Source: Clostridia bacterium | Lineage (GTDB): Bacteria > Bacillota > Clostridia > UMGS1883 | DNA length: 64,000 nt | NCBI GenBank assembly: GCA_045546275.1 | Contig: JAZQCM010000042.1 | Location: forward strand, 3,864 to 67,863 | Reading direction: 5' to 3' | Shown: one piece after another, positions 10,117 through 64,000 of the stretch | Layout: every line of letters begins with the position of its first letter | How positions within the stretch are numbered: position 1 is the first letter of the stretch | Made by a program: the position numbers and the translations under genes | Notes under the pieces: model-generated | The model's input: the letters and a program-made list of their open reading frames with translations, nothing else | Databases searched by the model: none | What the model was told of the DNA's origin: nothing

Positions 10117-11991
10117 ATGGCGAAAAAACAGTTTAAAACCGAGTCAAAAAGAATACTTGACTTGATGATTAATTCTATCTATACTCACAAGGAAATTTTC
10201 CTTCGTGAAATTATTTCAAATGCCAGCGATGCTATTGATAAGCTTGTGTTTGTATCACTTACCGAGGGCGCAGAGGGCTTTGACAGAAGCAATTACAAAA
10301 TAAGAATTGATATTGATAAGGAGCACAGAACAATTACCGTATCTGATAACGGTATTGGTATGAGCCGTGAAGAGCTTGAAGAAAACTTGGGCACAATTGC
10401 AAAAAGTGGCTCCTTGAACTTTAAAGAAAACATAACTGCCGAAGAAAAAACCGATAAGGAAATTGACATTATCGGTCAGTTTGGTGTTGGCTTTTACTCC
10501 GCTTTCATGGTTGCCGACAAGGTTACGGTTACAAGTAAAAAGTATAATAGTGATTCTTCCTTCACCTGGGAAAGTGAAGGCGTTGACGGCTACAGCATTA
10601 AAGAAAGCGTTAAGTACGACACAGGTACAACAATTGTTATGCACATTAAGGAAAACACCTCCGACGAAGTGTATGACGAATTCCTCCGTCCCTACAGGAT
10701 TAAGGGCATTGTTAAAAAATATTCCGACTATGTGCGCTACCCCATTGTTATGAACGAAGAAAAAACAGGGGACAACGGTGCAAAGTATGTGGAGGAAGAA
10801 ACTCTTAACAGCATGGTTCCTATCTGGCACAGAAGCCGTGGCGATGTAACCGACGAGGAATGCTTTAATTTCTACAAAGAAAATTTCTACGACATGGAAG
10901 ACCCCTTTAAGGTTATAAGAGTAAATGCCGAAGGCAACCTTAACTACAAAGCAATGCTTTTTGTTCCTTCAAAGGCGCCCATGAATTACTACACCAAGGA
11001 CTATAAAAAGGGTCTCAGCCTTTACACAAGCTCCGTTATGATTATGGAAAACTGCGAGGAGCTTTTGCCTGAGCATTTCAGGTTTGTAAAGGGTGTTGTG
11101 GACAGCGACAACCTTTCACTTAACATTTCCCGCGAAATTCTCCAGCACGACCGACAGCTTACACAAATTGCAACAAACCTTGAAAAGAAAATCAAGAGTG
11201 AGCTTAAAAAAATGCTCACGAACGAAAGGGAAAACTACGAAAAGTTCTTCCGTGAATTTGGGCTTCAGTTAAAATATGGTGTGGTTTCCGATTACGGTAT
11301 TCATAAGGAAATGCTTACAGACCTTCTTTTGTTCCATTCCTCCCTTACAAATTCTCTTGTAACACTTGAAGAATATGTGTCTTCCATGAGCGAGGAGCAA
11401 AAGTACATATACTATGCCCGTGGCGAAAACGTTACCAAAATTGACCTTCTTCCTCAGATTGAAACAATTAAGGATAAAAACTATGGCATACTTTACCTTA
11501 CCGATGATGTGGACGAATTTGTTGTAAACATTTTAGGCTCTTTTAAGGATAAGGAATTCAAGAACATCAACGACAAGGACCTTGGACTTGAAAGCGAAGA
11601 AGAAATTAAAGAAGCCGAAAAGAAGGAAGAGGAAAACAAGCTTCTTTTGGATTTTGTAAAGGAAAGCTTAGAGGGGCAGGTTGAATTTGTGCGTATTTCA
11701 CACAAGTTAAAGAGCCACCCTGTGTGCCTTACAAGCGAGGGCGAAATCACCCTTGAAATGGAAAAGTACTTCAAGAGCCTTCCCGGCGAAGAAGACAAAA
11801 TCAAGGCAAGACGAGTGTTGGAATTAAACGGTGAGCACAACGCCTTCCGTGCTCTTTCAAAGGCATTTGAAGAAGATAAGGAAAAAGCTAAAAAGCTCAG
11901 TAAAATCCTTTACACTCAGGCAGTTTTAATTGCCGATATGCCCATTGACAATGCTGTGGAATTTGCACAGTTAGTAAGTGAATTAATGTAA
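10117..11991 (+). CDS. htpG: Molecular chaperone HtpG (Hsp90).
   Basis: ILDLMINSIYTHKEIFLREIISNASDAIDKL...IGQFGVGFYSAFMVADKVTV (GHKL ATPase motifs). Confidence 0.95.
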   Translation: MAKKQFKTESKRILDLMINSIYTHKEIFLREIISNASDAIDKLVFVSLTEGAEGFDRSNYKIRIDIDKEHRTITVSDNGIGMSREELEENLGTIAKSGSLNFKENITAEEKTDKEIDIIGQFGVGFYSAFMVADKVTVTSKKYNSDSSFTWESEGVDGYSIKESVKYDTGTTIVMHIKENTSDEVYDEFLRPYRIKGIVKKYSDYVRYPIVMNEEKTGDNGAKYVEEETLNSMVPIWHRSRGDVTDEECFNFYKENFYDMEDPFKVIRVNAEGNLNYKAMLFVPSKAPMNYYTKDYKKGLSLYTSSVMIMENCEELLPEHFRFVKGVVDSDNLSLNISREILQHDRQLTQIATNLEKKIKSELKKMLTNERENYEKFFREFGLQLKYGVVSDYGIHKEMLTDLLLFHSSLTNSLVTLEEYVSSMSEEQKYIYYARGENVTKIDLLPQIETIKDKNYGILYLTDDVDEFVVNILGSFKDKEFKNINDKDLGLESEEEIKEAEKKEEENKLLLDFVKESLEGQVEFVRISHKLKSHPVCLTSEGEITLEMEKYFKSLPGEEDKIKARRVLELNGEHNAFRALSKAFEEDKEKAKKLSKILYTQAVLIADMPIDNAVEFAQLVSELM

Positions 11992-11992
11992 C

Positions 11993-12033
11993 AAAAAAAC
12001 TCAATTGCAATTTTTGCAATTGAGTTTTTTTGT
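11993..12033. terminator. Bidirectional terminator shared by htpG and malQ.
   Basis: aaaaaactcaattgcaatttttgcaattgagttttttt. Confidence 0.7.
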
Positions 12034-13541
12034 TATACTAAATTGTGATTTCGGTTGTAAATATTTACAAGACGCTTAAAGTAGTTAATATTGATTTTAT
12101 CCAGACTGTCCTGTGTAATGCGGAATGCCCAGTTGTTGTCGGCTTTTCCGGGGGTGTTCATTCTGGTGTCGGCACCAAAGCCGCACAAGTCCTGAATGGG
12201 AACAATTGCAATGGAAGCACTTGACTCAAAAAGTGTTCTGATAATTGCCTTAATGCAGGGCGCATCAAAACCGCCAATGCCCCAGTCGCCTTCAAAGCCG
12301 CAGTATGTACAAACTCTTTCACGTGTAGCGTTGTCCGCCTCCCAAAGGTAGCCTAAAATTGTATTGTTGTCGTGAGTGCCTGTGTAAGCCACGGTGGAGT
12401 GTGAATAATTGTAGGGCATGTGTGTGTTGTCGCCGTCGGAAAGGAATGCAAACTGCATTACGCCCATGCCGGGGAAGCCGGTTTCTTTAACAAGGTTTCT
12501 AACATCGTCATCAATGTCGCCCAAATCCTCCGCAATAATGGGGGAAGAGGGGTATTTTTCGTTAAGTGCATTGAAAAAGTCCATTCCCGGTCCTTTAATC
12601 CACTTGCCCTTTGTAGCCTTTTCCCCTGCAGGCACGGACCAATATGCACTGAATGCTCTGAAATGGTCAATTCTTACTGCATCGTAAAGGCTGAAGGAAT
12701 AGCCTGCACGCTTTATCCACCATTTGTAGCCGTCCTTTTTCATTTCGTCCCAATCATAAAGTGGGTTGCCCCATAATTGACCCTCCTGAGAAAAATAATC
12801 CGGAGGCACACCTGCACAGCTACGAAGTGCACAGGTTTTTGTATCCAAAGAGAAAAGAGTGGGGTTTGCCCAAACATCGGCAGAGTCGTGAGCAAGGTAA
12901 ATGGGCATATCACCAATAATTGAAACACCTAAAGCATTAACAGCTTTTTTAAGTGCTTTGTACTGCTTCTGAAATTCATACTGAAGGAAAAGGGCAAAGT
13001 AATAATCATCAAAAAGCTCTTCCTTTGCTTTTTTAACTGCCTTTTCATCTCTTCTTTTAATATCCTCGTCCCATTCCCACCAGGGCTTCAAATCGTAAGA
13101 ATCTTTAAGTGCTGTGAAAAGTGCATAGTCGTCAAGGTCGGGATTTTCCTTTAAAAAGCTGTCAAGAACAGCTGAATTATCCTTTTTAAAGCGGTCGAAA
13201 GCCTTTTTAAAAAGGGGAAGACGAGTTTGTTTTAAAAACTTGAAATCGCTGCTGTAAGGCTGAGATGCAACTGCGCTTTCAAGCTCCTCTTTGGTCAAAA
13301 GCTTTTCCTCAAAAAGAATTTCGGGGTCAATAAAGTAGGGGTTGCCTGCAAAAGCGCTGCAGCCTGCATAGGGTGAGTTATAGTCATCGGTAGGGCAAAG
13401 GGGAAGCATCTGCCATGCGTGAATATCCATGCTCTTTAAAAGCTCGGCAAACTTCACAGCCTCCTTACCAAAGGTGCCAATACCGTATTTTCCGGGTATT
13501 GAAGAAATGTGGCAAAGAACGCCACTTGTGCGGTTAAACAT
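12033..13541 (-). CDS. malQ: 4-alpha-glucanotransferase (amylomaltase, GH77).
   Basis: RTSGVLCHISSIPGKYGIGTFGKEA...WQMLPLCPT...SPYAGCSAFAGNPYFID. Confidence 0.9.
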   Translation of the reverse strand: MFNRTSGVLCHISSIPGKYGIGTFGKEAVKFAELLKSMDIHAWQMLPLCPTDDYNSPYAGCSAFAGNPYFIDPEILFEEKLLTKEELESAVASQPYSSDFKFLKQTRLPLFKKAFDRFKKDNSAVLDSFLKENPDLDDYALFTALKDSYDLKPWWEWDEDIKRRDEKAVKKAKEELFDDYYFALFLQYEFQKQYKALKKAVNALGVSIIGDMPIYLAHDSADVWANPTLFSLDTKTCALRSCAGVPPDYFSQEGQLWGNPLYDWDEMKKDGYKWWIKRAGYSFSLYDAVRIDHFRAFSAYWSVPAGEKATKGKWIKGPGMDFFNALNEKYPSSPIIAEDLGDIDDDVRNLVKETGFPGMGVMQFAFLSDGDNTHMPYNYSHSTVAYTGTHDNNTILGYLWEADNATRERVCTYCGFEGDWGIGGFDAPCIKAIIRTLFESSASIAIVPIQDLCGFGADTRMNTPGKADNNWAFRITQDSLDKININYFKRLVNIYNRNHNLV

Positions 13542-23140: not shown

Positions 23141-24025
23141 ATGAGTAAGTTTCAGTTATCCTGCGAATCTACAGTTGATATGCCCTATTCCTACGTTACA
23201 GGAAGAGATATATCTGTAGTTTTTTACACCTACATGGTAGATGGTGAGGTTTATGTTGATGACATGGGTCGTGACCCTGAGGCTCTTCCCAATTTCTACA
23301 AAATGCTTGATGCAGGCAAAATGCCCACAACAAGCCAGATTAACCAGTACAATTACGAGGAATATTTTGAAGAGCTTATCGAAAAGGGTGACGTTTTGCA
23401 CCTTGCATTCGGCAGAGGTATGTCCGCTTCTGTTGAAAATGCAATAAGAGCTGCAAAGATTGTTGGCGAAAATCATCCTGACAAAAAAATTATTGTTGTT
23501 GACACTCTTGCCTCCGCATCAGGTTACGGTATGCTTGTTGACTATGCTGCCGACATGCGTGACGAAGGCAAAACAATGGAAGAAATTGAAGCGTGGGTTC
23601 TTGAAAACCGCATGAATGTACATCACCAGATTTTTGCAACAGACCTTTTCCACTTAAAGCGTGGCGGTCGTGTTTCGGGTCCTGCAGCTATGATTGGTAC
23701 AGTTTTGGGTATTTGCCCCATTATGCGACTTAACGAAAAGGGTAGTATTTTAGCTTACGGCAAGGTGAGAAGTAAGAAAAAAGCAATTGCAGAAACTGTT
23801 AAGGCAATGGAAGAACACGTACAGGATGGTTACGACTATTCCGGAAAGTGCTTTATATGTCATGCCGACTGCATTGACGATGCAAACACAGTTAAAGCAT
23901 TAATTGAGGAAAAGTTCAAGAATGTAAATGTTAAGATTTTTGATATAGGTACTATTATTGCGTCCCACACAGGCAGAGGCACACTTGCACTCTTCTTCTT
24001 GGGTGACGACAGAAGTAAGCTTTAA
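23141..24025 (+). CDS. DegV-family (EDD fold) fatty-acid-binding protein.
   Basis: MSKFQLSCESTVDMPYSY...TTSQINQYNYEEYF...IASHTGRGTLALFF. An upstream promoter reads TTGAAA-17-TGaTAAAAT. Confidence 0.85.
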   Translation: MSKFQLSCESTVDMPYSYVTGRDISVVFYTYMVDGEVYVDDMGRDPEALPNFYKMLDAGKMPTTSQINQYNYEEYFEELIEKGDVLHLAFGRGMSASVENAIRAAKIVGENHPDKKIIVVDTLASASGYGMLVDYAADMRDEGKTMEEIEAWVLENRMNVHHQIFATDLFHLKRGGRVSGPAAMIGTVLGICPIMRLNEKGSILAYGKVRSKKKAIAETVKAMEEHVQDGYDYSGKCFICHADCIDDANTVKALIEEKFKNVNVKIFDIGTIIASHTGRGTLALFFLGDDRSKL

Positions 24026-24035
24026 TTAATAATAA

Positions 24036-24078
24036 AAGAGTCGGTAAAAAAGAAGTGTCCTTAAGGACACTTCTTTTT
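24036..24078. terminator. Bidirectional terminator shared by degV and the MFS gene.
   Basis: aaaaagaagtgtccttaaggacacttctttttt. Confidence 0.75.
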
Positions 24079-25236
24079 TACCGATAACGCTGACAATATT
24101 AAAATTAACGGGAAGACTGTTGCGGCTAAAAGTCCTGCATGAATATTTGAATTAAAAAGTGCACTGACAAAGCCTGTAAGAGTGGGACCCGATGAACAGC
24201 CCGCATCTCCTGCAAGTGCCAGAAATGCAAAGAGTGCCGTGCCGCCCTTTGGAAAATATTCTGCCGCCATTGAAAACACCCCCGGCCACAAAATGCCCGA
24301 TGAAAAACCGCAAAGGGCGCAGAATAAAAGTGTTAAGGGAGCATAGGGCGAAAAAGCTATTACAACATAAGACAAAAGGTTTAAAAGTCCGCTTAAAACC
24401 AGGGCTTTTTTTATTTTGAGCTTATGGGAAAACACCGAGTACAAAACCCTTGCAATACCCATCATAAGTGCAAACATACAAATGCCTAAAATATCGCCCA
24501 ACGCCTTTGAAATACCTAATGTGCTTTCGGTAAAGTAGGACGCCCACTGGCTCATTGCCTGTTCACTTGCACCTGCCGAAACCATTAAAAGTACAAATAC
24601 AAAAAAGGTTTTGCTTGAAAAAAGTGATTTAAGGCTCATTTTGCCCTTTTCATCGGTAAGCTGATTTACGGGCACAAACATAAAGAACAAGCCGTTTAAA
24701 ATGGGAATAAGAGCCCAAAAACAGCTTAATACAGGCCAAAAGGCTTTGCCTGCAAAATGCAAAAACAAGGTTGACACAATCACCACTGCCATTGTGCCCC
24801 AGCAGTAAAAGGAATGTAGCAGGCTCATAACCGAAGCCTTGTTTTCGGTTGGACAGCTTTCGGCAATGGGGCTTATTAAAACCTCAATAATGCCACCGCC
24901 AATGGCATAAAGCACAACGGAAAACACAATTACAGCATAGGAATTTGTTGAAAAATTTGGAAGTATGCCTAAGGACAAAAGTCCCAGTGCCGCAAAAGCG
25001 TGTGCAATCACAATTGATTTTTTGTAGCCGATGCGGTCAATAAACATGGGCGAAACAGCGTCCACAAAAAGCTGAACAAGAAAGTTTATTGTTACCAAAA
25101 GGGTAATGTGGGAGAGTGAAATGCCTAAATTTTCGTGAAAAATAAGAAAAAGAAGGGGTGCAAAGTTATTAACCACAGCTTGTGTTATGTAGCCGAAAAA
25201 ACAGGCAATAAGAGTGTGTTTATAGTTAAATTTCAT
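24061..25236 (-). CDS. MFS transporter.
   Basis: About 12 predicted TM helices (391 aa). It is the last gene of the zur-znu operon and overlaps the acetyltransferase stop. Confidence 0.8.
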   Translation of the reverse strand: MKFNYKHTLIACFFGYITQAVVNNFAPLLFLIFHENLGISLSHITLLVTINFLVQLFVDAVSPMFIDRIGYKKSIVIAHAFAALGLLSLGILPNFSTNSYAVIVFSVVLYAIGGGIIEVLISPIAESCPTENKASVMSLLHSFYCWGTMAVVIVSTLFLHFAGKAFWPVLSCFWALIPILNGLFFMFVPVNQLTDEKGKMSLKSLFSSKTFFVFVLLMVSAGASEQAMSQWASYFTESTLGISKALGDILGICMFALMMGIARVLYSVFSHKLKIKKALVLSGLLNLLSYVVIAFSPYAPLTLLFCALCGFSSGILWPGVFSMAAEYFPKGGTALFAFLALAGDAGCSSGPTLTGFVSALFNSNIHAGLLAATVFPLILILSALSVKKKCP

Positions 25237-38640: not shown

Positions 38641-38690
38641 CATAAAAAATATAAAATAATATGAGTATATATACAAAAGGAGTGACCAAT

Positions 38691-40628
38691 ATGGTAATTA
38701 AAGTAACTTTAAGAGACGATGTAAGAGAATTTGAAGCTCCTATAACCTACATGGATATTGCTAAGAGCATCAGTGACGGCTTAGCACGAACTTGTCTTTG
38801 TGCTACAAAAAACGGCGAAACCGTAGGCCTTTTTGATACCCTCACCGAGGATGCCGTAGTTGAATTTAAAAATTTTGATACAGAAGAAGGAAGAAACACT
38901 CTCCGCCACAGCGCAAGCCATGTTCTTGCACAGGCTGTTAAAAGGCTTTTCCCCGAGGTAAAGCTTGCAATCGGTCCTGCAATTGAAAACGGTTTTTATT
39001 ACGATTTTGACCTTGACAAGGGCTTTTCACCGGAAGATCTTGCTAAGATTGAAGCTGAAATGAAAAAGATTGTAAAGGAAAACCTCAGAATTGAACGCTT
39101 TGAATTGGAAAGAAAAGAAGCTGTAAAGCTTATGGAAGAAATGGGCGAGCCCTACAAGGTTGAATTAATTAACGATTTGCCTGAGGATGCTGTTATTTCC
39201 TTCTACAAGCAGGGCGATTTTACTGACCTTTGCGCAGGTCCTCATGTGCCCAACACAGGCTATGTTAAGGCGTTTAAAATAACCAGCACTGCAGGTGCAT
39301 ATTGGAGAGGCAACGAAAAGAACAAAATGCTTACCCGTATTTACGCAACTGCATTTACAAAAAAGGCAGACATGGAAGAATATCTTCTCCAGGTTGAAGA
39401 AGCTAAAAAGCGTGACCACAACAAGTTAGGTCGTGAGCTTGAACTTTTCACAACAAGTGAATATATCGGTCAGGGTCTTCCCATTCTTCTTCCCAAGGGT
39501 GTTGCCATTGTTCAGACATTGCAGCGCTTTGTTGAAGACGAAGAAGCAAGACGTGGTTGGCTTCGAACAAAAACTCCTCTTATGGCAAAGAGTGATTTGT
39601 ATAAAATTTCAGGTCACTGGGACCACTACAAGGACGGCATGTTCGTTTTAGGCGACGAAGAAAAGGACGACGAGGTTTTTGCACTTCGTCCCATGACTTG
39701 TCCCTTCCAGTATCAGGCTTATCTTAACCGTGCACGCTCTTACCGTGATTTGCCCCTTCGTTACGGCGAAACAAGTACTCTTTTCCGTAATGAAGCAAGT
39801 GGCGAAATGCACGGCTTAATCAGAGTAAGACAGTTCACAATTTCCGAGGGTCACTTAATGTGTACTCCCGAACAGCTTGCTGATGAATTCAAGAGCTGTT
39901 TGGAATTGGCAATTTACATGTTGAAAACATTAGGTCTTTATGAAGACGTTTCCTACCGTTTCAGCCAGTGGGATCCCGATGACCGTGAAAAGTACATCGG
40001 CACAGACGAACAGTGGAACGAAGCTCAGGGCATGATGAAAGAAATTCTTGACAACCTTGAAATCCCCTATGTTATAGGTGTTGGCGAAGCAGCGTTCTAT
40101 GGTCCCAAGCTTGACATTCAGATTAAGAATGTTCACGGCAAGGAAGATACTCTTATTACTCTTCAGATTGACCAGATGCTTGCAGAAAAGTTCGGCATGG
40201 TTTACACCGATACTGACGGCACAAAGAAGCATCCCTACATTATCCACCGTACAAGTATCGGCTGCTACGAAAGAACACTTGCTCTTCTTATTGAAAAGTA
40301 TGCAGGTGCATTCCCCACATGGATGGCTCCCGTTCAGGTTAAGCTTCTTCCCATTGGTGAAGGTCATCGTGAATACTGCCGTGAACTTAACACACGCCTT
40401 ATCAATATGGGCATCCGCAGCGAGGTTGACGACAGAAGCGAAAAGATTGGTTACAAAATCCGTGAAGCACAGCTCGAAAAGGTTCCTTACATGCTTGTTG
40501 TAGGCGACAAGGAAATGGAAGACGGTGCAGTTGCGGTTCGTAGCCGTAAGGATGGCGATAAGGGCTCAGTTAAGGTTGATGACTTTATCATGGCTCTCTT
40601 AAATGAAATCGCTGAAAAAACAAGATAA
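38691..40628 (+). CDS. thrS: Threonyl-tRNA synthetase.
   Basis: TGS domain followed by a class II core (FRNEASGEMHGLIRVRQFT, motif 2/3) and an anticodon-binding domain. Start at MVIKVTL, with RBS aaaaggagtg upstream. There is no room for a T-box leader. Confidence 0.93.
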   Translation: MVIKVTLRDDVREFEAPITYMDIAKSISDGLARTCLCATKNGETVGLFDTLTEDAVVEFKNFDTEEGRNTLRHSASHVLAQAVKRLFPEVKLAIGPAIENGFYYDFDLDKGFSPEDLAKIEAEMKKIVKENLRIERFELERKEAVKLMEEMGEPYKVELINDLPEDAVISFYKQGDFTDLCAGPHVPNTGYVKAFKITSTAGAYWRGNEKNKMLTRIYATAFTKKADMEEYLLQVEEAKKRDHNKLGRELELFTTSEYIGQGLPILLPKGVAIVQTLQRFVEDEEARRGWLRTKTPLMAKSDLYKISGHWDHYKDGMFVLGDEEKDDEVFALRPMTCPFQYQAYLNRARSYRDLPLRYGETSTLFRNEASGEMHGLIRVRQFTISEGHLMCTPEQLADEFKSCLELAIYMLKTLGLYEDVSYRFSQWDPDDREKYIGTDEQWNEAQGMMKEILDNLEIPYVIGVGEAAFYGPKLDIQIKNVHGKEDTLITLQIDQMLAEKFGMVYTDTDGTKKHPYIIHRTSIGCYERTLALLIEKYAGAFPTWMAPVQVKLLPIGEGHREYCRELNTRLINMGIRSEVDDRSEKIGYKIREAQLEKVPYMLVVGDKEMEDGAVAVRSRKDGDKGSVKVDDFIMALLNEIAEKTR

Positions 40629-45781: not shown

Positions 45782-46177
45782 TTATCTCTTTGAGAACTGA
45801 GGAGCGCGTCTTGCTGCCTTCAAACCGTACTTCTTTCTTTCCTTCATTCTGGGGTCTCTTGTTAAGAAACCAGCCTTCTTGAGGTCAGAACGGTATGCTT
45901 CTTCATCAACCTTCAAAAGTGCACGAGCTACACCGTGACGGATAGCACCTGCCTGGCCTGTAAAGCCACCACCCTGTACGTTACAAATTACGTCGAACTT
46001 TTCGAGTGTGTTTGTAAGAACGAGAGGCTGACGGATAATAACCTTAAGTGTTTCAAGACCAAAGTAATCGTCAATAGTTCTCTTGTTGATTACGATGTTA
46101 CCTGTGCCGGGTACAAGACGTACTCTTGCAACGGACTTCTTTCTTCTACCTGTACCGAAATACTGTGTTACTGCCAT
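45782..46177 (-). CDS. rpsI: 30S ribosomal protein S9.
   Basis: ...[19 protein letters not shown]...[16 protein letters not shown]. Confidence 0.97.
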
Positions 46178-46192
46178 TATTAGTTACCTCCC

Positions 46193-46630
46193 TTACTTAA
46201 TTTCGCCATTCCATGCTTCAGGCATCTGAGCTGCGTTCTTGTGTTCTGCGCCCTTGTATACTCTAAGACGAGTAAGTGCCTTTGCACCGAGGCTTGTCTT
46301 GGGGAGCATACCCTTAACTGCAAGGTACATTGCTCTGTCGGAACGATTAGCCATCATATCCTTAGCGGATACTTCCTTAAGGCCGCCTACCCAACCTGTG
46401 TGGTGACGGTACATTTTCTGGTTAAGCTTGTTACCTGTGAGTACTGCTTCATCACAGTTTACGATGATTACGTGATCGCCGCAATCTGCATGAGGTGTAA
46501 ATGTGGGCTTATTCTTACCGCGAAGGAGGCTTGCAGCTTCTGCAGCAACTCTACCTACGCTCTTGCCGGATGCATCAATGATGTACCAGTTTCTCTTAAC
46601 TGTACCGGCATTTTCCATATAGCTTTTCAT
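46193..46630 (-). CDS. rplM: 50S ribosomal protein L13.
   Basis: VKRNWYIIDASGKSVGRVAAEAASLLRGKNKPTFTPH. Confidence 0.97.
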   Translation of the reverse strand: MKSYMENAGTVKRNWYIIDASGKSVGRVAAEAASLLRGKNKPTFTPHADCGDHVIIVNCDEAVLTGNKLNQKMYRHHTGWVGGLKEVSAKDMMANRSDRAMYLAVKGMLPKTSLGAKALTRLRVYKGAEHKNAAQMPEAWNGEIK

Positions 46631-46727: not shown

Positions 46728-46770
46728 CACCTTTTTAATAAAAAAATAAAAAGTTTTATGTTTGCTCTCG

Positions 46771-46808
46771 TTTTCTCTTGTTTTCTCTTGTTTTCTCTTG
46801 TTTTCTCG
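46771..46808. repeat. 10-bp tandem repeat (ttttctcttg) of about 3.8 copies between the divergent rplM and ttcA-like promoters.
   Basis: ttttctcttgttttctcttgttttctcttgttttctcg. Confidence 0.8.
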
Positions 46809-46881: not shown

Positions 46882-47616
46882 ATGAGAAAAGCGTTAAGCT
46901 ATATGCGAAAAGCGGTTGACGATTATAACATGATAAATGAAAATGACCACATAACCGTGGGGGTTTCGGGCGGCAAGGACAGCCTTTGTTTGTTAGTAAC
47001 CCTTGCTGCATTAAAAAGGTTTTACCCTAAAAAGTTTACCTTATCGGCAATAAGCATTGACATGGGCTTTGAAGGTATGGATTTTTCGCCCATTAAAGAG
47101 CTTTGCGAAAAGCTCGGGGTGCCTTACTACGTGAAAAAAACCGATATAAGGGAAATTATATTTGATGTAAGGAAAGAAAAAAATCCGTGCTCTCTTTGCG
47201 CAAATATGCGTCGTGGTGCATTGAATGAAGCCGCAAAGGAAATCGGCAGTAACAAGGTTGCCTTGGGGCATCATTATGACGATGTTATTGAAACCTTCAT
47301 GATGAACCAGATTTTTGAAGGCAGAATAGGGTGCTTTTCCCCAGTGACATACCTTGATAGAAAAGAAGTGTGGGTTATAAGACCCATCATTTATATGCCC
47401 GAATGGTTTGTTAAAAGCTTTGCTGAAAAGGAAGAATTGCCCATTGTTAAGAACAAATGCACGGCTGACGGAAATACCATGCGAGAAGAGGTTAAAAAGC
47501 TTTTGGTTGAAATGGAGCAAAACTACCCCGGACTCAGACAAAGGCTCTTTACGGCTCTTTGTACGGCTGAAATTTCGGGCTGGAAGCCATCTACAGGACA
47601 TGGAAGAAAATTATAG
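46882..47616 (+). CDS. ttcA: PP-loop ATPase of the TtcA family (tRNA 2-thiocytidine synthetase-like).
   Basis: SGGKDS PP-loop. ...CSLCANMRRGAL; HHYDDVIETFMMN. Confidence 0.75.
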   Translation: MRKALSYMRKAVDDYNMINENDHITVGVSGGKDSLCLLVTLAALKRFYPKKFTLSAISIDMGFEGMDFSPIKELCEKLGVPYYVKKTDIREIIFDVRKEKNPCSLCANMRRGALNEAAKEIGSNKVALGHHYDDVIETFMMNQIFEGRIGCFSPVTYLDRKEVWVIRPIIYMPEWFVKSFAEKEELPIVKNKCTADGNTMREEVKKLLVEMEQNYPGLRQRLFTALCTAEISGWKPSTGHGRKL

Positions 47617-58863: not shown

Positions 58864-61713
58864 TTAGAAACATTTTAAGGTGCGGTACAGAACCGCTGCC
58901 GCCTCGGCACGTGTTGCGTGGTCCAAGGGCTTGAAAAGGTTCATTTCCTTACCTTCAAAAAGGTTAAGGTTTGTGCCCGTTTTCACCGCATCGTAGCTCC
59001 ATGAGCTTATCATGTGAGTGTCGTCGTAGCGAAGGGGCAAATCGTAAGGCATTGGGCCTTCCGCCAATTTATAGGCACGGGCAATTATTGTTGCCATTTG
59101 TTCACGGGTAATGTAGCCATTGGGGTCAAACTCTGTTTCGGATGTTCCTGTTATAATGCCTCGGCGGTAGGCAGCTTCAATGTAACCTGCCGCCCAGTAG
59201 CTTTCATCAACATCTTTGAAATTGCCGGAATAGGGCAACGAAACAAGTGAAAACGCACGTACAATCATTGTTGTAAATTCCGCTCTTGTAACCAAATGCT
59301 CAGGGTAAAACATTGTTTTTGTTTTGCCCGATATTACACCCTTTTCCGAAAGAGCTGCAACCATGTTTTCTGCCCAGTGGTCGGTAATGTCGTAGAAGGG
59401 GTGTTCTTTCACATTGTCAAGCTCAACAGGAGTCATTTCAGAAAGGGGAAGCTCGTCCTTTTCGTTCTGGTCAATATCCGATGCAATAAGCATTGGCAAC
59501 GAGGACAGGCTTTCACTAACAAGACCTGTGTAAGCGCAAATGGGGGTAACCTCAAAAATCACATACTGACCTGCCATATCGGGGGTGAACTCGAGATAAT
59601 TCTGGTTGGGAACACCAATCGGCTCGTAATGACCATCGTAGGTTGAAGAAATATACCAACGGGTTGAGCTTATGTCGGAATCAGGCTCATTTGTCATGTT
59701 GTTGATGTAGGTATAAGTGCCACGAAGGTATTCGCCATAGTCACCGCCTGAAATTGTAATTTCGGAAGCGGAAAGCTCTGCAGGGAAAATTTCAATATTA
59801 TCAATTATAAGACCAACCTCAGTTTCGCTTTCAATGTAGAGAGCAAGGCGGCCTGTTACGGTTTGGTCAACCATAAAGGGAATAAGTGTGTCTTCTGTGG
59901 GGTCGTATTGTGCAAAGGGCACATATTCGCCTGTGTAGGCGTCGGCAATAAGTGCAGTTACAATGCCCTCGCCAACCCCGGGCGATGCGGAATAAACATA
60001 GTATTCTCCGCCCAAAAGCTCCATGTAGGAGTTATTCATAACCATACATGATGGGTCAGGTGAATAAACATGTCCTGCTTTTTCACCGTTGTAATCAATT
60101 ATTGAGAAAACAGAACCATCGGAAGCGGTCCACCACTCATTTGCCTGCTTGATTTCAAAGCTTCCGTCACCAACAAGGTTGTCGCTGATTGAAATTTCAA
60201 GCTTTGAGGTTATGTTTTCGTAGGTTGCGGTGATAATGTAATTGCCAAGGTGGGCGTTGCTTTCAACAATTATTTCGCCATCTTCAAGGTACACTCCCTG
60301 GTTTGTGGGTGAAATTGAAAGATTAGGTTTATAGTTATCCATTGCATTACCCATCTGGTCAAGAACATAGGCAAAGCAAGGAAGAACGGTTGCCTCTGAG
60401 GGAACTGCAATGTTGCCGGGAGCATGAATTGAAACCGTTGTAGGTGCTTCATCCTCTATGGCTAAGTAAACGTTGTCAATGTAAATAGGTCTTTCTGACG
60501 GAGCGTACAAATTAAGGGTAAGGTCGTAAAGACCTGTGTCTTCAATGCAAAAGGCACTTGTAACCTGGTTCCAGTCTCCGCCAATGCCTGTAATGTTAAT
60601 TTCGGCGTAGCCTGACTGAGCAAATGAAAGGTTTGAAATGTATACTGAAGAAGAGGGAAACTCCTCGTCGCTTCTTACATCTGCTTTAAAAACGTACATT
60701 TCATCTTCCATCAAAAACAACTGGTCAGTGTAGCTTATGGTGGTGTATTTGCCATACATTCCGTCTGTGGAGGCGTAAAGCGAAAGAGAGCCGTCAGCAT
60801 AGGTAATTTCGTCCTCGCTTACCCATTTTTCCATGCCTTCTTCAAAGGATGCATCCGCCAGAAGATTTTTTGTGAGAAGTGCTGTAAATTCCGGATTTTT
60901 CACAGGAAGAGCCTCGGAAGAGGTAACCGAAATTGTAACCGTGGTATCGGGATTTGCAGTGGAATGAACTCTGACCATTCCCGATGCACCGTCAAACTCC
61001 ACACCTTCGGGAACATTGGTCATGGCAAAGTTATAGTCTTCCAAAAGAATATTAACAGGATTATCGTCGGTGTCGTAGGTAACAATGCTGTAACGGTAAT
61101 CTGTAAATCCACGGTCGGGAATGTACATGCTTTTAGGCCCTTCAATAACCGTATATTCGGGAACACGTGTTTCTGTTGTGATTGAAATATCGTCAATAAA
61201 GAAGCCCATGTCAATGTCACCGCCCGAAAGAGAAATGATGGGCTTACATTCAGCATCCTCCGTTGCCATAAATGAGGCTGTAACAAATGTAAAGCTGTCA
61301 CCGACAGAGTCAATATCAATAAAAAGTGCCTCGCCGTTACGACCAAGATATGCGCTGGCAGCTCCTTCTCTGGTGTCGGAAGCAAGAGGGTTTAACACAT
61401 ATGCCGAAAATGTGTAAACAACCCCCTCTTTAAGAGTTATTGTGTCGTTATATTCAAGAATGTGCCCAAAAACTGCAGTATCCTCTTCGCCAAAGGGGTT
61501 TGATATCTGCATGCCGTACTTGCCTTCGTAGGCACAGCCTTCGTCAAAAGTGCCGCCTGTCCACAAATCGTTTTCTGTTTCAAAGTTTTCAAAAAGAATC
61601 GCTTCCGATTCTTCCGCAAGGGAAACAACGGGCAAAAGTGACAAAACATATATTATAAACAATGTAATTGAAATAAGTTTATTTTTGTAAATCATTATAA
61701 TCTTCCTAAGCAT
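58864..61713 (-). CDS. Large SLH-anchored surface protein with CBM-like beta-sandwich and Ig-like domains.
   Basis: Signal/TM N-terminus. C-terminal SLH triad (FYDITDHWAENMVAAL, FKDVDESYWAAGYIEAAY, ITREQMATIIARAY, ATRAEAAAVLYRTL). Confidence 0.85.
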   Translation of the reverse strand: MLRKIIMIYKNKLISITLFIIYVLSLLPVVSLAEESEAILFENFETENDLWTGGTFDEGCAYEGKYGMQISNPFGEEDTAVFGHILEYNDTITLKEGVVYTFSAYVLNPLASDTREGAASAYLGRNGEALFIDIDSVGDSFTFVTASFMATEDAECKPIISLSGGDIDMGFFIDDISITTETRVPEYTVIEGPKSMYIPDRGFTDYRYSIVTYDTDDNPVNILLEDYNFAMTNVPEGVEFDGASGMVRVHSTANPDTTVTISVTSSEALPVKNPEFTALLTKNLLADASFEEGMEKWVSEDEITYADGSLSLYASTDGMYGKYTTISYTDQLFLMEDEMYVFKADVRSDEEFPSSSVYISNLSFAQSGYAEINITGIGGDWNQVTSAFCIEDTGLYDLTLNLYAPSERPIYIDNVYLAIEDEAPTTVSIHAPGNIAVPSEATVLPCFAYVLDQMGNAMDNYKPNLSISPTNQGVYLEDGEIIVESNAHLGNYIITATYENITSKLEISISDNLVGDGSFEIKQANEWWTASDGSVFSIIDYNGEKAGHVYSPDPSCMVMNNSYMELLGGEYYVYSASPGVGEGIVTALIADAYTGEYVPFAQYDPTEDTLIPFMVDQTVTGRLALYIESETEVGLIIDNIEIFPAELSASEITISGGDYGEYLRGTYTYINNMTNEPDSDISSTRWYISSTYDGHYEPIGVPNQNYLEFTPDMAGQYVIFEVTPICAYTGLVSESLSSLPMLIASDIDQNEKDELPLSEMTPVELDNVKEHPFYDITDHWAENMVAALSEKGVISGKTKTMFYPEHLVTRAEFTTMIVRAFSLVSLPYSGNFKDVDESYWAAGYIEAAYRRGIITGTSETEFDPNGYITREQMATIIARAYKLAEGPMPYDLPLRYDDTHMISSWSYDAVKTGTNLNLFEGKEMNLFKPLDHATRAEAAAVLYRTLKCF

Positions 61714-61813: not shown

Positions 61814-62890
61814 TTATTCAACTATTCTTGTCCAGTTGAAACTATCTTCAATTACACCGGACTGTATGCCTGTGATTGTGTCGTAAAGCATCTGGGAAAT
61901 TTCGCCGATTTCGCCGTTGTTGATAACCATTTTCTTGCCCTTGTGGCACAATTCACCAACAGGAGAAATAACAGCAGCAGTGCCTGTACCGAAAACCTCT
62001 TCCAAAGTACCGTTATCGTAAGCTTCCAAAACTTCGTCAATGGAAATTCTCTTTTCACTAACGGGAATATTCTTGCTCTTAAGAACATTAATAACGCTGT
62101 CACGTGTGATACCGGGAAGGATTGAACCGTTCAAGGCAGGTGTTACAACCTCGCCATTAATCTTAAAGAAGATGTTCATTGCACCAACTTCTTCAATGTA
62201 CTTTCTTTCAACACCGTCAAGCCAGAGCACCTGAGAATAACCCTTTTCGCCTGCTACAACCTGACCTTTAAGAGAAACTGCATAGTTACCTGCAGCCTTT
62301 GCAAAGCCCATACCGCCACGAACGGCACGAACGTATTCATCTTCAACATAAATCTTAACAGGGTTGAGGCCCTCTGCATAGTAGGGTCCTACAGGTGAAA
62401 GGATAACCATGAACTTGTATGTATGAGAGGGGTGAACGCCTAAAAATACATCAGTTGCAAAAATAAAGGGACGGATGTAAAGGGATGTGTTGGGAGCAGA
62501 AGGTACCCAATCACGTTCAACATTTACAAGCTCCATAACTGCCTTTGTAAATTCTTCTTCATCAATCTGAGGAATGCAAAGGCGGTCGTTGGAAACGTTA
62601 AGTCTTGCCATGTTTCTGTCGGGGCGGAACATACGGATTTTGCCGTCGGGGCAACGATATGCCTTCAAGCCTTCAAAAACAGCCTGACCATAGTGAAGTG
62701 TTGTTGTTGCAGGGTCCATTTCAATAGGACCGTAGGGAACAATTCTGCCGTCGTGCCAGCCAATACCTTCTGTATAGTCAATAATTAACATATGGTCGGT
62801 GAAAGTTCTGCCAAAAGGAAGATTTGATTCATCAACGGGTTTTGCCTTGGGGGCAGTTGTTTTTGTAATTTTAAGTTCCATTAAAAACAT
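61814..62890 (-). CDS. ilvE: Branched-chain amino acid aminotransferase (fold type IV).
   Basis: ...[17 protein letters not shown]. Typical size of 358 aa. RBS acaggag upstream. Confidence 0.92.
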
Positions 62891-62975
62891 CTCCTGTGTT
62901 TAAAATATATTGTAATCTATTATGCACCTTTTTTTTGAAAAAATCCAGTACTTTTTCAAAAAAACTTAAATTTTC

Positions 62976-63015
62976 TTAAGATGCATTGTATAGGTTACAA
63001 AATCTCCATGAGGAA
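62976..63015. repeat. Copy A (intergenic) of a perfect 40-bp direct repeat.
   Basis: ttaagatgcattgtataggttacaaaatctccatgaggaa is identical to 63152-63191. Confidence 0.85.
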
Positions 63016-63151
63016 CCGAGCCCGAACGCGTCCTGCGGACGATTAAGTGAGGGCGCAGGGTTGTGCCGCGGTCAACAAGCAACGACCAAGAGGGAGTTGC
63101 TGTTGGGAACCGCAAACGGAGTTCCTTGTTTATAGATTTTCCGAAAGCTTT
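63016..63151. other. 136-bp GC-rich (~60% GC), highly self-complementary element bracketed by the 40-bp direct repeats. Candidate structured ncRNA or small inserted element.
   Basis: Nested inverted repeats cgtcctgcggacg, caacaagcaac...gttgctgttg and ggaacc...ggagttcc. The GC content contrasts with AT-rich flanks. It contains the agaA stop codon. Confidence 0.4.
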
Positions 63152-64000
63152 TTAAGATGCATTGTATAGGTTACAAAATCTCCATGAGGAAAATCTATAA
63201 ACGCGCCTCTGTGCATCAGCTCATCGGCAGAATAAACATTGCCTGTGTGTTCATCCTTGTAAAGTGCCCCTTCCTCCAGGCCGTTGAGCTTTACAATGGG
63301 GAAGTACACGTTTGACTTGAACATAATCCTTACTGCACAGAAAAGGCTTTCGGTTTTATCCTCGTTTACTATCTGCCATGCCCCAAGATTGCCTGTGAAT
63401 GGGTTTGCCAGGCGGTAAAAATCGCCGTATTGAACAAGAGAGCGTATTTTTTTGCACTCCTCAACCTGGAGCTTTATTGCATCCAAATCTTCCTGTGGAA
63501 GAGTTGTAATGTCCAGCTCATAGCCAAAATTGCCTGAAAGAGCAATGTCACCACGGGTTTTCATGCTTGGTTTTCGTGCAGTGTAGTGATTGGGCGATGC
63601 TGTTACGTGACTGCCCATGGTGGAAGTTGGGTAGCCGAAAGAAGTTCCATACTGAATGTACACTCTTTCAATGGGGTCGGTGTTGTCGCTTGTCCAGATT
63701 TGTGGCATGTAGCAAAGAATACCTGCGTCAAACCTTCCGCCACCGCCGCTACAGCCTTCAAAGAGCACCTCGGGTGCCGCCTTTGTAATTTCATCTGTTA
63801 CACGATACATGCCTAAAGTATATTCATGGTTGTAGCCTAAGCGAGGCATGTCGGTAATGTAGCGGTTGTAGTCCCACTTAACGTAGCTTATTTTAGCCTT
63901 TTTAAGAATGGAAACAACTGAATTTATAACATAGTCCTGTACTTCTTTTTTAGTTAAGTCTAAAACTAACTGATTGCGGCTCTCGGCAGGCTTAAGTCCA
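63130..64000 (-). CDS. agaA: Alpha-galactosidase (GH36), 5'-partial. The gene continues beyond the window end.
   Basis: CSGGGGRFD...MPQIWTSDNTDPIERVYIQYGTSFGYP matches the GH36 catalytic region. The frame is open from 63849 to the window edge. Confidence 0.85.
   Translation of the reverse strand, partial: GLKPAESRNQLVLDLTKKEVQDYVINSVVSILKKAKISYVKWDYNRYITDMPRLGYNHEYTLGMYRVTDEITKAAPEVLFEGCSGGGGRFDAGILCYMPQIWTSDNTDPIERVYIQYGTSFGYPTSTMGSHVTASPNHYTARKPSMKTRGDIALSGNFGYELDITTLPQEDLDAIKLQVEECKKIRSLVQYGDFYRLANPFTGNLGAWQIVNEDKTESLFCAVRIMFKSNVYFPIVKLNGLEEGALYKDEHTGNVYSADELMHRGAFIDFPHGDFVTYTMHLKKLSENL
63152..63191. repeat. Copy B of the 40-bp direct repeat, lying inside the 3' end of agaA (codons PHGDFVTYTMHL).
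   Basis: Identical to 62976-63015. Confidence 0.85.

Follow-up and report, generated by a model that had tools for sequence, protein, structure and literature searches.

The agaA–ilvE Junction

The junction between the genes agaA and ilvE lies close to the right-hand end of a 64-kb stretch of DNA (64,000 nucleotides, hereafter called the window) from a Clostridia bacterium (GenBank assembly GCA_045546275.1, contig JAZQCM010000042.1). Both genes are on the minus strand; agaA encodes an alpha-galactosidase and ilvE, downstream of it, a branched-chain amino-acid aminotransferase. At the 3′ end of agaA, upstream of ilvE, two copies of a 40-nucleotide (nt) direct repeat, called A and B in Table 1, bracket 136 nt (63016–63151), as an earlier note on this DNA had correctly described. 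The two copies do not differ at a single position, and the number of exact 40-mer pairs expected by chance in the window is about 6e-15. The match can be stretched to 48 nt at 94% identity (62968–63015 and 63144–63191); past the 40 nt, the homology covers only 5 positions of 8 and is not significant. One 40-nt copy and the 136 nt together make up an insertion of 176 nt.

The 136 nt between the repeats are a composite. In the orientation of the genes, the order is X (15 nt) and Y (the 40-nt repeat), which overlap, then a linker (9 nt), X′ (15 nt), a GC-rich segment (112 nt), Y again (40 nt), the ancestral Lys-Ile-stop of agaA, the spacer, and ilvE. X is a stretch of agaA codons which overlaps copy B by 4 nt (TTCC), and X′ is its perfect reverse complement, a feature that had escaped the earlier note; the chance expectation for this 15-nt inverted repeat is about 3e-7. 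In folding, X and X′ form a 15-bp perfect stem around a 45-nt loop. The sequence of X is identical in the contig of the closest ilvE relative (L005, 96% identity at the amino acid level), which indicates that X is ancestral and that X′ was copied from it. Some of the sequence that looks foreign was thus copied backwards from agaA itself. A 15-mer of this kind is too improbable by chance, and every model must therefore include a step of templated copying. In total, the 176 nt consist of 40 nt of direct copy, 15 nt of inverted copy, and 121 nt (112 + 9) for which the data examined gave no template, so that 55 of the 176 nt can be traced, all to within about 50 nt of the junction. A likeness of 13 nt between the linker and agaA (63341–63353) is not significant and was rejected.

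TABLE 1. Features of the agaA–ilvE junction, in window positions.
Feature	Position	Strand	Remarks
X, ancestral agaA codons (A)FIDFP	63188–63202	-	GTTTATAGATTTTCC in gene orientation; perfect inverted repeat with X′
Copy B of the repeat	63152–63191	-	Inside agaA; encodes (F)PHGDFVTYTMHLK
Linker, 9 nt	63143–63151	+ (as written)	GAAAGCTTT; no template found; gives codons K-L-S of the new C-terminus
X′	63128–63142		Perfect reverse complement of X; holds the new agaA stop codon (63130–63132)
GC-rich segment, 112 nt	63016–63127		60.7% GC; three hairpins; no homologue found
Copy A of the repeat	62976–63015	-	Now non-coding; with 62966–62975, the displaced ancestral end ...TYTMHLKKI*
Ancestral agaA stop, TAA	62966–62968	-	The open reading frame 62966–63115 ends there; aligns with the stops of relatives
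A/T-only palindrome	62930–62964		13-nt perfect arms, 9-nt loop; inverted-repeat search and alignment; outside the insert
Conserved block upstream of ilvE	62917–62928		GGTGCATAATA; alignment; left untouched by the insertion
agaA, 3′ part (GH36 alpha-galactosidase)	63130–64000	-	Stop-free open frame, continues past the window edge; stop 63130–63132
ilvE (branched-chain amino-acid aminotransferase)	61814–62881	-	Homologues of 355 amino acids; Pfam Aminotran_4

The Ancestral Site and the Age of the Insertion

The present C-terminus of the agaA product is ...TYTMHLKKLSENL, which can also be written ...HLKKLSENL. The closest alpha-galactosidases are 83–87% identical to it (69% for the more distant P0022), and the Pfam domains Melibiase and Glyco_hydro_36C are present in its homologues. 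Their C-termini read ...TFTMLLKKI (P0001), ...TYTLHLKKI (P0003) and ...TYTLHLKKI (P0022), and none of them ends in ...KKLSENL. The end that copy A would supply in the agaA frame is of the same kind, and its stop codon now lies 176 nt downstream of its original place relative to the coding sequence. When the loci of relatives were aligned to the window, exactly 176 nt were missing from four of them (L001, L002, L003, and L005). Gene order around the site is conserved: agaA, ilvE and a gene for an S-layer-homology (SLH) domain protein follow one another in both L002 and L005, with an agaA–ilvE spacer of 76 nt in each, and the full order in L005 is SMC, agaA, ilvE, SLH, RicinB, LysR, and Na/Ala symporter. 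The spacer of the window measures 84 nt if counted from the ancestral stop, and 248 nt if counted from the present one. From the ends of the homologues and the four loci that lack exactly these 176 nt, it follows that copy A is the displaced ancestral 3′ end of agaA and the 176 nt an insertion, as the earlier note had surmised.

The DNA identity of these relatives to the window is only 74–80% (20–26% divergence), and at this distance their lack of the 176 nt establishes that the insertion is specific to the lineage, not that there is an empty site at the level of strains. The age of the event can be estimated from the copies themselves. No difference is found in the 55 duplicated nt, of which 40 are now non-coding, which puts an upper bound of about 5% (P = 0.05) on their pairwise divergence. 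This complete identity shows the insertion to be recent; the nearest relatives are 20–26% diverged at the DNA level.

The GC-Rich Segment

The 112-nt segment differs markedly in composition from the window, which has 41.4% GC. It belongs to the top 0.1% of 100-nt windows by GC, and all other GC islands that reach the cut-off of 0.57 fall within open reading frames (ORFs). The 136 nt between the repeats have 55% GC overall; the earlier note had put this stretch at about 60% and the genome at about 38%. The best fold of the segment is that of the plus strand, antisense to agaA and ilvE: single-sequence thermodynamics, applied to this one sequence, predicts a four-way junction of -46.8 kcal/mol (z = -2.9), in which the minimum free energy structure equals the centroid. 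The fold of the minus strand has a z of -1.7. The three hairpins named in the earlier note were recovered by folding. The outer stem of the four-way junction spans nearly the whole 112 nt and is lost once the flanks are included.

No source for the segment emerged from the collections searched. The segment has no second copy within the 64-kb window, nor within the 35 kb of sequence compared from the loci of relatives; the earlier note had tied its idea of an inserted element to the existence of further copies and of empty sites, of which the latter were found in relatives and the former were not. A rearranged piece of nearby genes was rejected after blastn, tblastx and nhmmer comparisons with the window and with L001–L006 gave nothing, and these comparisons included full-length agaA, SMC, and FtsY from L005 as well as the ilvE and SLH genes of the relatives. 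Neither did blastn yield a match in phage, plasmid, and E. coli records. Exact-word scans, with words covering most of the 112 nt, found none in IMG/VR viral contigs or in JGI metagenomes. In a scan of species-representative genomes (one genome per GTDB species, 185,579 species), a single 21-mer matched a metagenome-assembled genome of Ilumatobacteraceae; this match was rejected because the sequence around it shows no relation and because chance alone, judged by the size of the collection, should give about 0.3 such matches. A captured coding fragment was also rejected: only two of the six frames are open, and in a search of 5.8 billion proteins no protein had a word in common with either translation.

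Structural and regulatory roles fared no better. The earlier note had seen in the segment a possible structured-RNA element, but no Rfam family matched anywhere in the window at the gathering threshold, and a relaxed search (E ≤ 10) of 701 nt and 161 nt around the element returned noise, with chrB-a as the best match (13.9 bits against a threshold of 43.9, E = 2.5). A scan for transfer RNA and transfer-messenger RNA found none. The suggestion that the element acts as a terminator or leader was not borne out either, in that a consensus scan called no intrinsic terminator on either strand of 63016–63151. The nearest terminator-like feature is a bulged hairpin at 63104–63124 followed by TTGTTTAT, on the plus strand and thus antisense to the genes; its T-tract is partly copied agaA sequence. 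Similarly, alternative promoters had been proposed from a TACAAT hexamer, but a consensus scan called no promoter-like site in either copy of the repeat, and the hexamer corresponds to Tyr-Thr-Met codons of agaA.

Several other identities were tried and set aside. A T-box was considered because GGGTTGTGCCGCGG resembles the T-box motif, and was rejected since the sequence is on the wrong strand for ilvE, lacks a UGGN bulge and has no Rfam support. Comparison of motifs by eye gave no match to domain V/VI of group II introns, integron attC sites, FRT or lox scars, or sequencing adapters. Finally, sites for MluI, SacII, and HindIII in the core might suggest engineering, and this too was rejected, as the number of 6-bp palindromes is about that expected by chance.

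Origin of the Insertion

Among the explanations considered, we tentatively favor, at a little less than an even chance, a single recent and near-neutral complex insertion that arose through serial template switching during replication or replication-coupled break repair. Such an event would resemble fork stalling and template switching (FoSTeS) or microhomology-mediated break-induced replication (MMBIR). A nascent strand would have departed from its template after copying agaA as far as ...CATCTTAA, possibly because the fork stalled at the A/T palindrome, which starts 11 nt further on. After gaining 9 nt, it would have copied the 15 nt of X′ backwards from the opposite or the nascent strand of the agaA codons just upstream, and then a further 112 nt from a GC-rich template, either ectopic or exogenous. 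It would finally have rejoined the original template at TTCC, 40 nt behind the exit point, with the result that the last 40 nt were copied twice. In this account, the sequence of switches, what made the fork stall and where the filler came from are inferred.

Several features of the junction are consistent with template switching. It is the simplest account of all the pieces, because X′ already requires templated copying. The absence of any deletion and the duplication of 40 nt agree better with a replicative or one-ended process than with simple end joining. The recency of the insertion and its restriction to this lineage also speak for template switching, as does the failure of the searches to reveal any hallmark of transposition or of site-specific integration. 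The direct copy of 40 nt and the inverted copy of 15 nt overlap in their source, at TTCC. The placement of the insertion within the last two codons of agaA, with the ilvE signals intact, is as expected of a mutation that survives in vivo.

Comparable products are described in the literature. A single template-switching event can produce a reverse-complement copy together with a perfect hairpin stem (PMC8794818), and known template-switch mutations, of the quasipalindrome and FoSTeS/MMBIR types, share with this locus the one-step reverse-complement stem, the duplication behind the re-entry point and the mosaic at a single site (PMC8794818; PMC7202029). The classical bacterial cases, however, concern a few to tens of nt and local templates only, whereas here 121 nt are non-local and have no identified template. 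The favored event may also be regarded as formally analogous to synthesis-dependent microhomology-mediated end joining (MMEJ). Two reports (PMC2943611; PMC5728401) describe how snap-back and loop-out synthesis during break repair leads to inverted and direct templated inserts, and similar inserts at repair junctions are found in a third (PMC4912351). In bacteria, a group II intron-like reverse transcriptase, G2L4, carries out MMEJ (10.1101/2022.03.14.484287). Inserts of the MMEJ, polymerase-theta and G2L4 types are likewise built from direct and inverted copies of the flanks; they are usually shorter than 30 nt and accompanied by deletions at a two-ended break, whereas here there is no deletion and 40 nt are duplicated. 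We know of no MMEJ-type enzyme in the organism of the window.

Other observations weigh against template switching. In comparisons with 64 kb of the genome, no template was found for either the 112-nt segment or the 9-nt linker, 121 of the 176 nt in all. Microhomology at the junctions amounts at most to the 4-nt TTCC/GGAA overlap, and none is verifiable at the other junctions. The 112 nt, GC-rich and folding into a compact four-way junction, look more like a discrete unit than like a random fragment, even if the outer stem is lost with the flanks. To our knowledge, multi-step events with a filler of this length are poorly documented in bacteria. Microindels formed by SPDIR (double illegitimate recombination with short patches), a process by which ectopic single strands are built into bacterial genomes at microhomologies, are also smaller, at about 3–100 bp (10.1101/2023.11.22.568220).

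Three signs classically mark an integrative element: perfect direct repeats where a gene ends, an original 3′ end that has been displaced, and a C-terminus that has been replaced. All three signs are seen at the end of agaA, where the repeats are exact over 40 nt and copy B lies inside the gene. A phage or island might have entered there through a 40-bp att core and later shed almost all of its interior, so that only 136 bp now separate attL from attR; the repeat even contains TTGTA-N5-TACAA, a small inverted repeat of the kind often present in recombinase cores. We nevertheless consider an integrase footprint unlikely. The att-site duplications of elements with tyrosine or serine integrases likewise show perfect direct repeats, a displaced end and a replacement end supplied by the element, but here only 136 bp separate the repeats and the searches revealed neither integrase nor attP. 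Furthermore, X′ repeats, in inverted form, host sequence that lies outside the core: attP could not carry it, and 11 nt of it would have to match by chance. Pfam annotation of the 50 main ORFs in the 63 kb of the window to the left of the insert found no integrase, transposase, reverse transcriptase, phage gene, or island gene; the right-hand neighbors in L005 are SMC and FtsY. By exact matching, the viral contigs of IMG/VR contain neither the 40-mer, scanned as a core 24-mer, nor the two junctions, scanned as 22- or 23-mers, and the insignificant homology past the 40 nt offers this explanation no help. A small mobile element, as the earlier note had proposed, fits these data even less well, and we hold it to be very unlikely that a non-autonomous structured unit of DNA or RNA (112–136 nt) transposed while duplicating a long target, or followed a target-primed or guide-dependent route. 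The unit is admittedly discrete, GC-rich and compactly folded, its flanking repeats could be a target-site duplication, and the plus-strand fold followed by 15 nt identical to target-adjacent sequence has the layout of a scaffold and its guide. There is also a precedent for long duplications, since IS1549 and IS1634 produce target duplications of 8–514 bp, that is, direct repeats of tens of bp around inserted DNA as seen here (PMC2266710). These two elements, however, are 1.5–2 kb long and have a transposase and defined ends, whereas the present insert has no coding gene, is single-copy in the window and shows no terminal inverted repeats whichever of the 41 possible boundaries is chosen (the boundaries being ambiguous within the 40-nt repeat), the best score of 10/20, with or without small shifts, being at chance level. 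A duplication of 40 nt is not the fixed short target-site duplication of a miniature inverted-repeat transposable element, and duplications as long as this are reported for the IS1549/IS1634 group only. A diversity-generating retroelement, whose repeats differ at adenines of the template, finds no support either, in that the repeats are identical here and none of the ORFs scanned in the window is a reverse transcriptase. The collections searched, from the species genomes, JGI metagenomes and IMG/VR to the phage, plasmid and E. coli records and Rfam, yielded no real match or family for such an element. That the four-way-junction unit is a new small mobile element based on RNA or single-stranded DNA, target-primed or guide-dependent, with a 40-bp duplication and X′ as its 15-nt guide or primer-binding segment, seems to us highly improbable.

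Two further explanations were considered. Exogenous DNA may have been joined by homology-facilitated illegitimate recombination or by microhomology annealing, in which case the 112 nt would come from an organism of higher GC content. Their composition, 61% GC in a 41% GC window with no local match, agrees with this, and SPDIR provides an example of the integration of ectopic single strands at microhomologies (10.1101/2023.11.22.568220). On the other hand, no donor was found in any collection searched, the patches reported for SPDIR are about 100 bp or shorter, and import leaves the local direct and inverted copies unexplained, so that template switching would still be required; import as such is in our opinion quite unlikely. 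The insertion might also be an artefact of the laboratory or of the assembly, produced by polymerase template switching in whole-genome amplification or by a chimeric assembly path. In vitro, strand-displacement amplification makes inverted or duplicated chimeras, the structure is exactly what polymerase jumping would yield, and the genome is not represented in other collections, which leaves no independent copy to confirm it. However, the junctions lie inside an otherwise colinear and syntenic stretch, and an assembly would need read support at three novel junctions. An artefact would be expected to land at random in a window that is mostly filled with ORFs, whereas the insertion fell in the last two codons, brought an immediate in-frame stop and spared the ilvE signals, a position that argues for a mutation which has passed selection in vivo. 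An artefact is thus an unlikely, though not negligible, origin.

The ilvE Upstream Region and the Rest of the Window

The longest ORF of ilvE (61814–62890) begins with MFLMELK..., while its close homologues have 355–356 amino acids and begin with MELK.... The true start is probably at 62881 and not at 62890, because the closest homologues have 355 amino acids and only the ATG at 62881 lies at a suitable distance from the GGAG ribosome-binding site. An exact look-up of the product, in its 358- and 355-amino-acid versions, gave no record. The alignment with relatives indicates that the insertion altered neither this ribosome-binding site nor the GGTGCATAATA block, which is kept in L001, L002, L005, and L006 in spite of 20–26% overall DNA divergence. 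The A/T palindrome begins 2 nt past the ancestral agaA stop and has a counterpart in L002 and L005. Together, palindrome and block probably form the promoter or operator region of ilvE.

Downstream of ilvE, the next gene (58864–61713) encodes an SLH-domain protein. Pfam searches of the 50 main ORFs gave matches for 46 of them, which include SpoIIGA, a sigma factor, YqfD, SpoIIE, enzymes of aromatic amino-acid synthesis, the ribosomal proteins S9 and L13, threonyl-tRNA synthetase, RNase III, and hydrogenases. Judged by this gene content, the window is housekeeping chromosome of a spore-forming clostridial organism.

A few further observations were made in the window and in the relatives. Another SLH-domain protein, encoded by the ORF at 36–2276, contains exact direct repeats of 21–45 nt (490–1251), always spaced by 282 nt, which indicates putative tandem modules of 94 amino acids in this S-layer-homology protein. 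T-box or ribosomal leaders are found in many Firmicutes upstream of genes such as that for threonyl-tRNA synthetase (38661–40628) or the L13/S9 operon (45782–46630); no Rfam match at the gathering score was obtained upstream of either of these here. A short tandem repeat with a period of 10 nt, seen as a 28-nt exact self-match at that offset, occupies 46770–46807 between the L13 gene and the ORF at 46882–47616. Exact inverted 20-mers occupy the short gaps between two pairs of convergent genes, at 11989–12016 (between 10117–11991 on the plus strand and 12033–13541 on the minus strand) and at 24041–24054 (between 23141–24025 on the plus strand and 24061–25236 on the minus strand), and are probably bidirectional terminator hairpins. 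Among the relatives, the alpha-galactosidase of L002 (GCA_965313135.1, contig CBDMTK010000110.1, 22–2148) is called as two ORFs (22–1431 and 1480–2148), a split that may stem from a frameshift or a sequencing error, or mark a pseudogene.

Consequences and Significance

At the protein level, the insertion would have changed the last residue of the agaA product from Ile to Leu and added Ser-Glu-Asn-Leu. At the RNA level, the 3′ untranslated region (UTR) of agaA is predicted to gain 176 nt of strongly structured RNA. The fold computed for the minus strand of the whole region has -72.8 kcal/mol (z = -3.6), and in it the 15-bp perfect stem encloses the last 15 sense codons of agaA, with the stop codon in its 3′ arm. 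Since the ancestral stop, the palindrome and the block upstream of ilvE are all intact, the insertion is probably near-neutral, with little or no phenotype expected. The 40-nt repeats would allow its precise reversion by recombination or slippage.

Most probably, the insertion is a one-off structural mutation whose general kind is known. If the 112-nt unit were repeated elsewhere, its importance would be much greater. If template switching is the true origin, the locus would represent a natural bacterial case in which one event had four outcomes: the C-terminus of a protein was rewritten, 40 bp were duplicated, a 15-bp RNA stem was created, and more than 100 nt of unrelated DNA were imported. 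Such a case would change the understanding of no system, and would illustrate how new 3′ UTR structures and C-terminal extensions may originate.

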